DNA of 64,000 nucleotides from Antedon mediterranea (lineage: Eukaryota; Animalia; Echinodermata): contig NC_092670.1 of the NCBI RefSeq assembly GCF_964355755.1, positions 5,322,201-5,386,200 of the forward strand, given 5' to 3'. Made by a program: the position numbers and the translations under genes. Each line of letters starts with the position of its first letter. Position 1 is the first letter of the stretch. The notes beneath the pieces were generated by a model that was given only the letters and a program-made list of their open reading frames with translations, was not told the origin of the DNA and ran no database searches. Shown piece after piece: positions 53,201-57,690 of this stretch.

Positions 53201-56200
53201 AATATATAATTTTATGAACAAATAAAGTATAAAGCTGTGAGTATACAGAAAAAAAAGAACAAATATGATATACAAAAACATTTGAATAAAATATACAAAA
53301 AAAAAAGAATCAAACATAATTATCAAGAAGGAAAGAGTCAATAGATGATAAAAGATGAGGAAAAGATTCAGTAACAGCTAATTGGCGTAATGAGGAAGGT
53401 AACTGAGACCACCAAAGTTTATTCAACTCATAAACATTCATTATTTGTATATATTTTGAGAACACCAGTAATGTTTCAATCAATTTTGGTTTTTAATAAA
53501 TAAATTGTTATCTTAACAGGGGACAAGTAGACCTTCCCACTACCATGTGTTGTGGGATGACAACGAGTTTACAGCTGATTCTCTTCAGACGCTAACATAT
53601 CAATTATGCCACACGTATGTGCGCTGCACTCGTAGCGTGTCAATTCCAGCGCCCGCTTATTATGCACATTTGGTAGCATTTCGTGCACGGTATCATCTTG
53701 TTGAGAAAGATCATGACAGGTAAGATCTGAAGCCTTGTCTACACTATCAAACTTTATGTGTCAAAAAAGTGTGATGTGCCCATATATGGACATGATGATG
53801 TCACATCACTACCATATTTAAGCATAGCACTACCATATATGGGCACATCAAAATTTTTTGACACATAAAGTTTGATCGTGTAGACAAGGCTTTATGTTCT
53901 CTCCTTGGAATGTGCAGGAGCATTCTTTTGCATGTTTTCATTTCTCTTTTCTTCTCTTTGACGGATAATAATTCAAAAAGGTATTTGGGAGCGCTAGAGA
54001 GTAGGAATTTAAATATGAACGAGGGACTCCACAGGTAATGTAATACTATTGAAATTGTTGGAGAACAAAACTTACTTGGGAATTTCATTTATCGACTCCA
54101 GAGAGAGTTAAAATCATTATCAGTAAAATTAATCTTATGTGTTTCTGTTTACAGTCCCAGCCAATCACGAAACGGTAGCTATGTAGGCAGTGGTGGAGAC
54201 AGGTAAGCTAATTAAGATTTTTGTTTGAGTAGAATTTTTAATAAGTACTTTAATCCAGTTTTTTTAGTCTCAATTCCTTTGTCCCAAAAGCTAACTAACA
54301 CACCATGTTAACAATAAATCTATCGGGTTAATCACACATAGGTGTATCCTTTCCATTTGATTGATTGATTTTGTATCTCGTGGCGTGCATTATTTTCTTC
54401 CATTCTCATGATGGGAGTACATTGCACATGTTCAGGTTTTTGTGAATATTTAAAGAAAGTGGTAATATTCTCTAGGCTAGTGAACGATGTTTTATGGAAA
54501 CCCACCTGTGTTCATCATCTATATCTTCTCTGCCTACAACCTAATTCCTAGTGCATTTTTTAGTGGCCTAGCCTTTGACATTTGATTCAAAATGGAAACC
54601 GTGGGTTAATTGAATAAAAATTAAATTTAAAACAGTAGGTTTATTTTAATACTTTATCTATAATAATAGATAATTATATAATAATAATACTAATCTAAAT
54701 AGGTTTGTAAAATAAATATAATATTTTCTGTCTTGTTTTCACTGGATGGGGTTAATATTTTCATACTTTGAAATCCAAAATGGAGTCTCTGTATTATTTA
54801 AATATAGACCTTTAAATCTTAACAAGACTAACCTCTCATTTTTATTATTTCTACTATTATGTAATTGTAATTCCTTAATTTTCCAATATTTAAGATATCT
54901 GTATATTTTTTCATGCTAACAACATTGTTTGAATTTTGGATAATATATAGTATAAAACTAGAAAATAATTTTATCTTAATATATTGTTTTATATTCTAAT
55001 TAATGTAACTTTAATGCGCTTTAATATATATATACAATGTACACATTTCATTTTCATCCCAAATAGTAGTCCTGGACACGAGTCACCTACTGGAAAGTGA
55101 GTCTAATAAAATACATTTTGTACTCTAGAGGGCATGTTTTTTCCTATTCTATATATTCTACTCTAAAATACCCATCATGCTCCTTGTGTGGATCCCTATG
55201 CTTTCAATTTTGCGATGACAATGACCTCCTATTTAATACTTTTTGCTTTCAGTGAACTTGCACGACTTTTTTTTTTTTTTGTACAATGGAATTCAGTATT
55301 CAGCTTTTGGGTTGAAATTCCAGGTATCAGTAAACTTTGTATAGCACCCTCTAGTTTGGCGTTTGGCTCAGTATATTTTTTAGGAAGCCTACAATTATCT
55401 ATACAATATCAACTAAAAATAAATAAGAAAACTAAATCCTACCAGCCCAATTTTTCTTTGTTAGGCTTAAATTTACATTTGCCTTTCTTGTTTTTATAAT
55501 GGAATTTCTGTTTCGCAAATACTACTACAAGAAGCATAAGAAACATGCTCACAAGCCAGTCAGAGTTGTGATAGCTTCGCCACAAGGCTAATTTCCAAAT
55601 TTAAGATATGTCAATTAATGAATTTTCTGAGATCAATACATTTTACTGACTACTGAATTCTCCTCATTTGCATCAACCATCTACAAACTGAAAGCACCCC
55701 ATATACTGTATACTTCCTAAAATAATAAGATAACTTTATGATGGTAAATTAATAATATAGCAGTTGATGGTTTTCATTAATGGCACTTTACACACTAACA
55801 TCCTCTATATTTACATTATGGTGCTTGAAAAAGATCTTGATCTCTTTACATTAATGCATGGCTTGGTAATTAATACAAAAATGATGTCTTTTATTATTAA
55901 TTCATATATAATTTGTTAGTCTAATAAATAATGCAAAATTAGTACATTTAGAATGTCATTTTTCCTGAAAATATTATTCTGCTAACTTCTACTAAATTCT
56001 ATAATTAAAATAATTAGTTATTCGTTCATAGATAAATGGGATTCTATAAAATGGTGCATTATTTCTACTACGTCATCATTCTTTATTTCGCCATTAAAAG
56101 TAACTGTGAATTTAACATAGTTAAACAATAAGACAGTCAGTTGGAAATGTAAGCAGGCAAGGATAACAAATACCAAAACATTGCAGGCTCAATTATCCGT

Positions 56201-57690
56201 CCTTAAAAACCATTACACTATAAATTAATTCTATACAAATATATTCAAATTATATTTAAATTAAAAATGTGGCCTTTTATTAGATACTTGTAGTTAAAAA
56301 TATTAAATTTAATATTAAGCAATTTTGTAGACTCATAAATACAACTTTACCATAAAGCTTCTAGTAATAGTAACTAGTGTAAATAATAATTTAGTAGGCC
56401 TATAAATGCATTATTAGTATTAGTAATTTAGCAATCTCTATCATTTATTCTTTTAGGTAGTTCCTAGCTACAGTAACTAACCATGTGTATGGATTTCTAC
56501 ATCATTTGACACCCTTAGGGTTTTCATATCAAATTCAATTATATTTAACCATAAAAATATTGTTAATTTAATTATTGTGTTTTTTTATAATTTTAAATGT
56601 AAAAATATGAGGTAAAATTTAAGTATGGTAATGAATGTGGAGATGGTACAAAACAATATAGAACATATACCTACGCATGCTCATGTAACTAATACCCTGT
56701 TCACACCTGCAACAAGTTGTAACCAGGTTTGCATAGTGTGAAGACAATTTTATAAAAATTTATGATGGGACACCTATGAAATCTCAAGAGAAAAATACAC
56801 AGATTAAAGGCCTGTTTGTTTGTTCTGCATTGTTACTACACGAGAGTGTATTGCTCTTGAATTAATCACAGTAATCAAATAGCGTACAACTATGCTTTCT
56901 CCTGAGATTTCTCATGGTTTGTGTCTGTATGTTTGAAAATGTGTAATAAATTGGGAAATCAAATCTGGTAACAATTGATGTAAATGTGAAAAGGGTATAA
57001 TGTTGACTACCATCACTACTTGAATTGTAACTACTTTATATCAGTATGGTTCATGAAAACACACACACACACACACACATGATGTAACTACTTTATATCA
57101 GTATGGTTCATGAAAACACACACACACACACACATGATGTAACTACTTTATATCAGTATGGTTCATGAAAACACACACACACACACACATGATGTAACTA
57201 CTTTATATCAGTATGGTTCATGAAAACACACACACACACACACATGATGTAACTACTTTATATCAGTATGGTTCATGAAAACACACACACACACACACAC
57301 ACACACACACACCCATGATGTAAATGCAATTCTCTATGTGTATAATTTGTACTACTACCTAGTTCTTTCATTTATATGTTTCTGTAATGTTTAAACTGTT
57401 TGTACTATGTATACCATGTATCTCATTCTTTTTAAATTATAATAATTATAAATTGTTTTTTTTTGTGAAACATGAAACCATTAACAGTAGTACAATCTTG
57501 ATTGTAAATTTATTAACAGCCGTATTATAATTATAATCATTATAATTTGAGAGTAATCAGTAATTTAATACTTTCTTTCAGTGGGGAAGGAAGCCAGCAT
57601 TCTCACAGTGGGAACGGCCGTAGTTTTACTGACATGACACGATGCGTACAAATCCACGAAGATCAGCTGAAAGTAATGTATTTTGCATAA
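35215..57690 (+). CDS. AGO2: Argonaute (AGO clade, AGO2-like), 904 aa, or 930 aa with both microexons; intact DEDH slicer tetrad
   Basis: In-frame GT-AG exons: 35215-35257, 38407-38716, 39049-39169, 40426-40607, 40910-41046, 41278-41409, 43643-43730, 44172-44255, 44866-44929, 45247-45318, 45536-45583, 46044-46166, 47207-47340, 47629-47813, 49215-49374, 49769-49859, 50886-51080, 51903-52037, 52584-52685, 53520-53719, [54155-54202], [55067-55096], 57582-57690. Motifs: [75 protein letters not shown]. Confidence 0.97.
37195..37440 (+). mobile_element. Decayed L2-type LINE 3' fragment in Argonaute intron 1
   Basis: Broken frames reading YWLPIPF...[10 protein letters not shown]...[11 protein letters not shown]. 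Confidence 0.55.
40657..40775. mobile_element. Harbinger-type MITE family A, copy 1 of 6
   Basis: TIR AGCTCTGTC.ACACTATCAAACT / AGTTTGAT.GT.TAGACAGAGCT, TWA flanks. Confidence 0.85.
41443..43449 (-). mobile_element. Second copy of the tRNA SINE (41443-41507 plus 43238-43449), split by a DNA transposon
   Basis: The two halves align to the SINE at 22730-23043 (TATATAGCG...ATTACCC; GGATCAAACACGTATGGAAACATACTC; CTGGGTGGAGAGAGGTAA; GGATTCGAACC). Confidence 0.85.
41508..43237. mobile_element. hAT-like non-autonomous DNA transposon (1.73 kb) with a 6-bp TSD
   Basis: TIR CAGGCCTCGAATTT / AAATTCGAGGCCTG, perfect TTACCC duplication, GGGCACCAAGGCCA sub-terminal repeats. Confidence 0.9.
45851..45982. 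mobile_element. MITE family A, copy 2 (right end truncated)
   Basis: AGCTATGTCTACACTATCAAACTAGTTTGAC...GTGATGTGCCCAAATATGGTAGTGA. Confidence 0.8.
46733..47140 (-). mobile_element. Decayed LINE 3' end (CR1/L2-type)
   Basis: Minus-strand remnant reading [21 protein letters not shown], with an (AATA)n tail at about 46733-46752. Confidence 0.5.
47385..47527. mobile_element. MITE family A, copy 3 (internal CACTACCATATTT triplication, truncated)
   Basis: AGCTCTGTCTACACTATCAAACTTTATG... Confidence 0.8.
48227..49143. mobile_element. Non-autonomous element with a terminal 168-bp palindrome and a 23-bp inverted repeat (possibly Crypton-related)
   Basis: Near-perfect palindrome 48227-48394 centred on GAGGCGATGAGCCGAG. 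TTATATAACATCTAAATAAATTC (48396-48418) is mirrored by GAATTTATTTAGGTGTTATATAA (about 49121-49143). Family assignment is tentative. Confidence 0.6.
49379..49531. mobile_element. MITE family A, copy 4, inserted in a splice donor
   Basis: Complete TIRs with TAA TSD at 49376-49378 and 49532-49534. Confidence 0.9.
50041..50163. mobile_element. MITE family A, copy 5
   Basis: TIRs AGCTCTGTCTACA / TGTAGACAGGGCT, TTA TSD. Confidence 0.85.
50256..50837 (+). mobile_element. Helentron-associated non-autonomous element (HINE/DINE-like) carrying an antisense tRNA-like segment
   Basis: 5' TTATTACCTCCGCCAAGG, a (TG)n microsatellite, internal repeats (CCACAGTTTT.ATCCGATTCT), and 3' GGCGGAGGT plus hairpin ending CTAGTT. 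tRNA-like piece at about 50625-50690 on the minus strand. Confidence 0.75.
53731..53891. mobile_element. MITE family A, copy 6
   Basis: TIRs AGCCTTGTCTACAC / GTGTAGACAAGGCT; starts 11 nt into the intron after exon 20. Confidence 0.88.
54155..54202 (+). CDS. AGO2: Argonaute 48-nt cassette microexon ([16 protein letters not shown])
   Basis: TTTCTGTTTACAG acceptor, AG|GTAAGC donor, phase 2-2, open in the Argonaute frame. Confidence 0.75.
55067..55096 (+). CDS. AGO2: Argonaute 30-nt cassette microexon ([10 protein letters not shown])
   Basis: TTTTCATCCCAAATAG(TAG) acceptor, AA|GTGAGT donor, phase 2-2, open in frame, GC-rich island in AT-rich intron. Confidence 0.7.
56693..56997. mobile_element. 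Old Harbinger-type MITE
   Basis: Imperfect TIR TACCCTGTTCACA / TGTGAAAAGGGTA, TAA TSD. Related ends occur at about 57855-58026 and 58157-58530. Confidence 0.6.
57026..57322. repeat. Minisatellite: constant TGTAACTACTTTATATCAGTATGGTTCATGAAA plus variable (AC)n, five units
   Basis: Identical unit repeated five times, separated only by (AC)n tracts. Confidence 0.92.

Follow-up and report, generated by a model that had tools for sequence, protein, structure and literature searches.

Conserved microexons predicted to lengthen the phosphorylated insertion loop of a microRNA-type Argonaute in the crinoid Antedon mediterranea

Human AGO2 carries a eukaryotic insertion (EI) loop whose residues S824-S834 undergo a phospho-cycle driven by CK1alpha and PP6-ANKRD52 (PMC9154749; PMC13041839), a cycle usually viewed as a fixed, conserved four-to-five-site switch. 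The last intron of an Argonaute gene in 64,000 nt of Antedon mediterranea DNA (the window) contains two short segments at exactly this position. Are these segments exons, are they spliced alternatively, and what would the serines that they encode do to the loop?

The Argonaute gene and its two microexons

Judged from its sequence, the window gene is an intact microRNA-type (AGO-clade) Argonaute. It was modeled against P0001, an automatically annotated RefSeq protein of the crinoid Anneissia japonica ('protein argonaute-2-like isoform X1') with six Pfam domains (N, L1, PAZ, L2, MID, and PIWI), and three exon boundaries of the spliced model were adjusted by hand (Table 1). Running from an ATG at 35215 to a TAA that ends at 57690, the model has 23 exons counting microexons A and B, encodes 930 aa when A and the 27-nt form of B are included, contains one terminal stop, and is identical to P0001 at 883 of 922 residues (95.8%). 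AlphaFold predicted P0001 with low confidence over its whole length (mean pLDDT of 50.5), and that model was set aside. The PAZ motif on which CK1alpha docks (D252, S253, R255, V256, and R286; residue list from PMC13041839, numbering read off the human AGO2 alignment) is kept in P0001, in the window exons, and in P0002, an A. japonica paralogue of P0001 that is likewise an automatic RefSeq annotation. The crinoid loop has equivalents of S828 and S831 in the alignment to human AGO2, both encoded by the last exon and hence present in every isoform, and the S834 equivalent stands at +5 rather than +6 from the S828 equivalent, i.e., out of register.

Table 1. Coordinates of the Argonaute gene and of the features around its insertion loop
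Feature	Position	Strand	Remarks
microRNA-class Argonaute gene	35215..57690	+	tblastn with P0001 and spliced model
PIWI exon ending just before the S824 equivalent	53520..53719	+	phase 0-2; 66/66 vs P0001
Microexon A	54155..54202	+	48 nt, AG/GT, phase 2-2; internal peptide of 15 residues
Microexon B	55067..55096	+	30 nt, phase 2-2; second AG gives 55070..55096, 27 nt
Last coding exon	57582..57690	+	35/36 vs P0001, 25/36 vs P0002
Probable 3' UTR	57691..59735	+	X1 contig depth; end provisional

Microexons A and B sit in a phase-2 intron at the position of human AGO2 S824; the 3' end of the preceding exon maps to D823/S824, and the junction Ser aligns with S824, so that the first-pass annotation had placed them correctly in the insertion loop. 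Its exon coordinates and frames were borne out, with phase 2 at all surrounding junctions, and the NAGNAG acceptor that it had described at B was confirmed, the second AG giving the 27-nt variant. Any combination of exons had been said to keep the frame, and all six are indeed stop-free. A together with the 30-nt B contributes 26 residues, with 8 Ser/Thr and 3 Ser-Pro sites among them, matching the earlier count, and with both exons the loop is lengthened by 25 to 26 residues. The peptide of exon B is SPGHESPTG, and its final two nucleotides, AA, turn the following junction codon into Asn. Strong splice sites had been claimed for both exons; scored with a matrix from 20 junctions of the same gene, this holds for A (acceptor, 12.2 bits; donor, 13.2 bits) and fails for B (acceptor, 0.3 or -1.0; donor, 3.1), which scores near the bottom of the range seen in this gene and has a donor carrying the GTGAGT consensus. 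Among 92 frame-keeping candidate exons in the intron, A ranked 1st and B 10th. The GC content of the exons is 50 to 54% versus 30% for the intron. As to an origin of A or B by duplication from elsewhere in the window, the only support was a 10-nt match between the A donor region and the upstream donor.

Conservation across species, named earlier as a check on the exons, was found in the orthologue P0001, which has both of them: its exon A peptide is identical at 15 of 16 residues and its exon B peptide, of the 27-nt length, at 9 of 9. Paralogue P0002 carries A without B; its identity is 80.3% over the whole protein and 25/36 in the last exon, yet 16/16 in exon A. In the tree P0002 is a crinoid duplicate (support of 95/95) at a path of 0.23 from the window protein. 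The sole change seen in A is Ser to Gly in P0001, at the only serine that is off the ladder described below (n = 1). A search of 50% clusters returned 14 matches and no additional crinoid form. Because A tops the 92 candidates and both peptides recur in P0001, A and B exceed chance, and they are almost certainly real coding exons.

Inclusion of the microexons in transcripts

Evidence resembling RNA came from run X1, a single sample whose RNA nature is guessed and which was available as assembled contigs only, a form from which rare transcripts drop out. Contig depth over 57582-59735 was about 50 to 59 versus 3 to 6 in intron pieces; AATAAA occurs at 59881, among other copies, near the probable 3' UTR. 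One intron contig begins at 54173, the branch point predicted at the exon A donor, and another contig has 60 letters ahead of 57582, a length to which A and B would contribute 30 letters each. When the same geometry was applied to a constitutive junction as a control, the start was predicted at 51053 and observed at 51053. The contigs fit one path that includes both exons at a depth of 51, similar to the 39.9 of a contig on the upstream exon. No skip branch was present in the X1 contig graph and no merge occurred at 57582, which leaves skipping minor at most in X1, insofar as contigs retain rare forms. From contig ends and geometry we infer that A, the 30-nt B, and the last exon form the main transcript in X1, and both exons are likely included in most transcripts. 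Contigs of runs X2 and X4 (one sample) pass through introns and contain no splice joints.

Support for alternative use of the site comes entirely from relatives. The first-pass interpretation is supported in part: alternative splicing of A and B in A. mediterranea, and the tissue-specific effect on RISC turnover proposed with it, would still be predictions. RefSeq isoforms X2 and X3 of the sea cucumber Apostichopus are identical at 980 of 980 residues apart from an 8-residue cassette at this site and 3 residues elsewhere; the form with A alone is annotated only for P0002. By analogy with these relatives, B is likely the optional exon and can likely be skipped, and some skipping in A. mediterranea is somewhat more likely than not. 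It is somewhat unlikely that both exons are constitutive in crinoids, giving a longer loop in which only the tandem acceptor wobbles and splicing is not regulated. The single X1 path with its depth and lack of a skip branch, the very strong splice sites of A, and the presence of both exons in P0001 fit such a fixed loop, as does the absence of TGC in positions -40 to -1 upstream of A or B. The weak acceptor of B, the symmetric, frame-keeping design of both exons, the alternative sea cucumber cassette, and the paralogue with A but without B speak against it.

Neural microexons under Srrm3/4 (the eMIC) carry a UGC motif shortly before the acceptor. A and B resemble them in being short, symmetric, frame-keeping, and located in a surface loop, and the 27-nt B is within their usual size range; they differ in lacking that upstream motif, which would mark membership in the class, and in the 48-nt length of A.

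Inserts at the S824 site in other invertebrates

Canonical Argonautes had been said to run directly HDS-[AG]EGS, which by loop length is so in 153 of 220 homologues and not in the rest. Human AGO2 shares with the crinoid protein the loop itself, the junction serine, the S828 and S831 equivalents, and the PAZ docking residues, whereas its loop, in the sequence of the solved structure, is without extra exons and shorter by the crinoid addition; the scored stretch contains 11 to 12 Ser/Thr in the crinoid versus 4 in human AGO2, and in the crinoid form with B an Asn stands at -4. In a biased sample, 18 representative proteins of invertebrates (7 from ambulacrarians, 11 from protostomes) carry inserts at the S824 site, and sequence comparison points to a recurrent insertion point across invertebrates, newly noted here. 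The inserts contain 28% Ser/Thr and 1.4% Lys/Arg, compared with 11% and 13% in the core; flexible loops are commonly Ser/Gly-rich. Motifs of the B-like form GH[QE]S, with Asn at the end, were also found in four classes of echinoderms and in a hemichordate, and a Tyr, as in A, recurs in starfish, sea cucumber, and urchin inserts.

Could such inserts be tolerated passengers, in that the loop, disordered, exposed at the surface, and interrupted by an old phase-2 intron, accommodates added exons or displaced acceptors without much consequence for function? The protostome inserts are mutually unrelated in sequence, many of them end in the residue pair expected from a translated acceptor, two further positions gather inserts (68/220 and 12/220 proteins), and structures leave most of this flexible loop unresolved (PMC9154749, PMC13041839). 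This explanation is nevertheless improbable for the crinoid exons, given 16/16 identity of A between paralogues with 20% divergence elsewhere and the recurrence of the GH[QE]S motifs. In the literature searched we found no description of microexons in the Argonaute phosphorylation loop, in keeping with the earlier statement that the mechanism was undescribed, and no discussion of the Anneissia insert. What appears to be new at this loop are the crinoid microexons and the recurrent invertebrate inserts; the EI phospho-cycle itself is known.

The serine ladder and target release

Exon A encodes a Ser-x-x-x-Ser ladder with a serine at every fourth residue. The form with A alone has serines at -20, -16, -12, -8, -4, and 0 from the S828 equivalent, whereas exon B swaps the Ser four before that residue for Asn and breaks the register. 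Neither the ladder nor this Asn had been pointed out in the first-pass annotation. In a shuffle test for a spacing of 4, P was 0.009 for A alone, or about 0.07 when corrected for the eight spacings tested, the ladder having been noticed post hoc; P was 0.0014 for five other ambulacrarian inserts, the rows of which are related. No such enrichment was present in the 11 protostome inserts (P = 0.21). The GSK3 relay consensus has Ser/Thr at four-residue intervals on the N-terminal side of a primed serine, a spacing that is found relative to the S828 equivalent in the A-only form and is lost when B is included. CK1alpha primes GSK3 at i-4 in KDM1A (S687, then S683), as stated in an excerpt of PMC5968562; no report linking GSK3 to S824 was found in titles or abstract openings of the literature searched. 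Without B the ladder ends on the S828 equivalent, which suggests a CK1-primed GSK3 relay, although this specific relay is an unlikely prediction drawn from residue spacing.

The reading that we favor, which we regard as evenly poised, is that conserved coding microexons lengthen the phosphorylated loop, are mostly included with B optional, and provide serines that tune target release; the predicted phospho-tuning role of the added serines, taken separately, falls a little below even. As happens in human AGO2, target binding would let CK1alpha phosphorylate the S828 equivalent. With A but not B included, GSK3 could then walk up the ladder, since serines stand at -4, -8, -12, -16, and -20, adding up to five phosphates. 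These extra phosphates would strengthen the electrostatic push-off of the target; more phosphates are known to bring faster release via electrostatics (PMC9154749). Inclusion of B, with Asn at -4, would cut the GSK3 relay. The ladder would end on Ser-Pro with the 27-nt B and lie one residue out of register with Ser-Pro with the 30-nt B, so that priming would either fall to proline-directed kinases or cease. In sum, phosphorylation of the loop would increase and follow other routes owing to the added serines.

Another explanation, again improbable, is that the exons encode a short docking motif (e.g., a degron, or a site for a reader of phospho-Ser-Pro or phospho-Tyr) instead of charge that aids release. 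The exact conservation of A including its Tyr exceeds what a charge patch needs, a Tyr recurs in the inserts of other echinoderms named above, and 4-spaced GSK3 ladders often form degrons; against this, docking has no known partner, and the position adjoining the CK1alpha-targeted serines favors the known cycle. That the segments are chance intronic pseudo-exons, to which the score of B (no better than several pseudo-exons of the same intron) would lend itself, is in effect refuted by the cross-species identity, with both peptides in the annotated protein of a second species, by their GC content, and by the fitting X1 contig ends.

Returning to microexons that tune release, a broader version, speculative and unlikely as it stands, would apply to microRNA Argonautes of bilaterians: their last intron would serve, recurrently, as a splicing dial for RISC turnover. 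Echinoderms and hemichordates would have an ancient two-microexon module, A being a CK1-primed GSK3 ladder and B an optional breaker (Asn at -4, 27/30-nt acceptor choice), and splicing would decide on amplification of target release by signaling kinases. If inclusion is regulated, splicing would set the turnover rate of the microRNA complex. In the crinoid lineage, dedicated, long-kept exons have roughly tripled the sites, and many invertebrates vary the same spot. The isoforms (skip, A, A plus 27-nt B, and A plus 30-nt B) offer a natural series for the electrostatic-release model and for GSK3 input to Argonaute, and the question could be taken up in sea cucumber and sea urchin, both of them tractable.

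Shrimp Ago1, another microRNA-type Argonaute of an invertebrate, resembles the crinoid case in that its PIWI domain gains about 27 residues by alternative splicing: Ago1A and Ago1B differ from Ago1C by an 81-nt alternative PIWI insert with tissue and infection bias, which the excerpt of that paper does not link to phosphorylation (PMC3510085). In P0148, a decapod-like protein, the EI loop is canonical and an insert of 27 residues lies at the QHRQ/EII position. Placement of the shrimp insert in the EI loop is therefore unlikely, and it likely lies elsewhere, as the position in P0148 suggests.

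Conservation and expression of the two microexons

The Anneissia japonica protein P0001 ("argonaute-2-like isoform X1"), sole candidate from a last-exon search, was aligned to the window, and with boundaries refined (three set by hand) this gave a 23-exon gene model between 35215 and 57690 on the + strand, encoding 930 residues and one terminal stop. The model was identical to P0001 at 883 of 922 positions (95.8%) and to a second Anneissia protein, P0002, at 729 of 908 (80.3%). In a core tree of 17 proteins, with the loop region left out, the window model and P0001 were grouped at 100/100 support and P0002 was their crinoid sister at 95/95, a grouping that points to a crinoid origin for the window. 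The gene is a microRNA-class Argonaute.

All six combinations of exons A and B were in frame, as the first-pass annotation had claimed; its count of added residues also held (26 for A with the 30-nt B, including 8 Ser/Thr and 3 Ser-Pro sites), and the tandem acceptor of B was recovered. The insertion was correctly assigned to the eukaryotic insertion (EI) loop, since the junction serine aligned to S824 of human AGO2 chains; the S828 and S831 equivalents sit in the last exon. Strong splice sites had been claimed for both exons, and this is correct for A only: scored with a small matrix trained on the 20 remaining junctions of the gene, A came first among 92 frame-keeping candidates in the intron (25.4 bits, against 6.3 for the best unrelated candidate), whereas B, with a weak acceptor and a GTGAGT consensus donor, ranked 10th.

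Features of the window
Feature	Position	Strand	Remarks
Exon A	54155-54202	+	48 nt; inside the phase-2 intron that separates 53719 from 57582
Exon B	55067-55096	+	30 nt; 27 nt if second AG used; same intron as exon A
MITE-like repeat 1	40652-40779		palindromic, ~160 bp; Argonaute intron
MITE-like repeat 2	45847-45982		as copy 1
MITE-like repeat 3	47382-47501		as copy 1
MITE-like repeat 4	49376-49535		as copy 1
MITE-like repeat 5	50077-50166		as copy 1
MITE-like repeat 6	53725-53900		as copy 1
Tandem repeat, ~55 bp	57020-57320		CA runs; last intron, 5' of final acceptor
Exon array	52-2633	-	translations resemble scavenger-receptor cysteine-rich domains
1149-codon single open frame	6650-10096	+	signal-peptide-like start; no Pfam match
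Thr/Ser-rich mucin-like frame	14562-15425	-	signal-peptide-like start, hydrophobic end; no Pfam match
Open frame	33941-34351	+	resembles C-terminal end of LINE reverse-transcriptase protein; no Pfam match at 1e-3

Some of the six MITE-like copies lie directly 3' of donors, and their depth was very high in all three sequencing runs compared.

Both segments are conserved across species, a check the annotation had proposed: P0001 carries A (15/16 identical) and then a 27-nt B (9/9) in the same order. P0002 lacks B and its last exon is only 25/36 identical; because this paralogue has A at 16/16, A is older than the crinoid gene duplication. Exon A has stayed nearly unchanged since before that event, within a loop whose human AGO2 counterpart is flexible.

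Indirect RNA evidence came from X1, a presumed RNA run available as contigs (31-letter words), in which depth was 50-59 over the last exon and 2 kb downstream and 3-6 over the listed intron pieces. Intron contigs are expected to begin 30 letters ahead of the point at which the spliced and unspliced paths first diverge, and starts were observed exactly as predicted at the constitutive junction 51080-51903 (51053) and at the exon A donor (54173). The last-exon contig aligned from exactly 57582, preceded by 60 unaligned letters. That alignment would be 3 letters longer if the preceding exon ended as A or the PIWI exon does, whereas B adds 0; 30 letters each from A and B account for the 60, and the 27-nt form would leave 57. 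These contig ends fit A, then the 30-nt B, then the last exon. A and B are real coding exons.

Possible alternative use of the junction

No break of the X1 contig was seen at 57582, where the skip path would break it, in this one sample, whose contigs drop rare forms; because the contig is unbroken, inclusion looks dominant there. In the sea cucumber Apostichopus japonicus, isoforms X2 and X3 were identical at 980/980 positions and differed by an 8-residue cassette at the EI junction (and by 3 residues in another linker), which supports alternative splicing at this junction in relatives. Mite (P0012/P0118, 872/893 identical) and planthopper (P0151/P0212, 919/928) pairs each comprise one protein with and one without an insert, from different records or species.

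Predicted phosphorylation of the extended loop

According to PMC9154749, target binding by human AGO2 allows CK1alpha to phosphorylate first S828 and afterwards S831 and other sites; the added phosphates hasten target release electrostatically. CK1alpha docks on PAZ, the loop being mostly unresolved in structure (PMC13041839), and the docking motif was found in both crinoid paralogues.

The regulation and function of A and B are inferred: the exons would increase phosphorylation of the loop and redirect it, B acting as the optional switch, a proposal to which we give even chances. In the A-only form serines stand at -20, -16, -12, -8 and -4 from the S828 equivalent, and another at -18; with B included, Asn occupies -4, and the last serine of the ladder is at -13 in the 27-nt form, where it belongs to a Ser-Pro, or at -14 in the 30-nt form. 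The GSK3 relay consensus has Ser/Thr at every fourth residue, the spacing of the A-only ladder. A GSK3 relay along these predicted steps is the boldest part of the proposal, and we consider it unlikely. In KDM1A, CK1alpha primes S687 and GSK3 then acts at S683 (PMC5968562). Shuffle tests at spacing 4 gave p=0.009 for exon A (one of eight spacings, the pattern noticed post hoc), p=0.0014 for five related ambulacrarian inserts and no enrichment for 11 protostome inserts (p=0.21). The single substitution seen in exon A takes away the out-of-register serine.

Inserts in other Argonautes and precedents

Among the matches listed (best 120 of 832 and best 120 of 989, both queries insert-bearing and the sample thus enriched), 220 proteins were aligned, fused models and short fragments excluded. 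Inserts of at least 4 residues lay at or just before the EI junction in 54 of these 220, at least one being a mammalian model that resembles a mis-called acceptor. The statement that canonical Argonautes run straight through HDS-[AG]EGS held by loop length for 153 of the 220 listed homologues (under a slightly different filter) and failed for the rest.

As expected from a phase-2 junction, the inserts opened with Ser, Arg or Gly in 18/18 representatives (two crinoid paralogues, sea cucumber, urchin, starfish, another echinoderm and a hemichordate; mite, spider, sea spider, priapulid, Owenia, nemertean, Aplysia, millipede, barnacle, Daphnia and planthopper). A GH[QE]S-like motif was common to the ambulacrarian inserts, and exon B may be homologous to it (~4/8 residues, one shift). 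Five of seven ambulacrarian inserts ended in Asn at the scripted anchor, those of urchin and sea cucumber having it one or two residues earlier; Asn at the junction needs a separate exon because a translated AG acceptor cannot give it. Many protostome inserts have Ser as their final residue and may reflect shifted acceptors. The EI junction is a recurrent insertion site in invertebrate Argonautes.

Within the full text available, including PMC3510085, PMC7235612, PMC10773944, PMC5968562 and the EI papers PMC9154749 and PMC13041839, no description of exons or isoforms in the EI loop was found, in line with the annotation; the supplements of microexon surveys could list them. EI-loop inserts already stand in RefSeq proteins, without comment. 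The nearest precedent in the text available is the 81-nt PIWI insert of shrimp Ago1 (PMC3510085), likely at a different site from A and B, because the decapod-like P0148 combines a canonical EI loop with an insert of 27 residues elsewhere in PIWI. A and B are a real, conserved feature and a fresh variation on a known regulatory loop.

Hot spots are not peculiar to the EI loop, because two further positions gathered inserts among the 220 listed homologues: one in invertebrate Argonautes after the linker-2 YGG motif, at the window 46166/47207 junction (68/220), and one in PIWI at QHRQ/EII (12/220, mostly crustaceans). The 3-residue difference of the Apostichopus isoforms sits at the linker-2 position.
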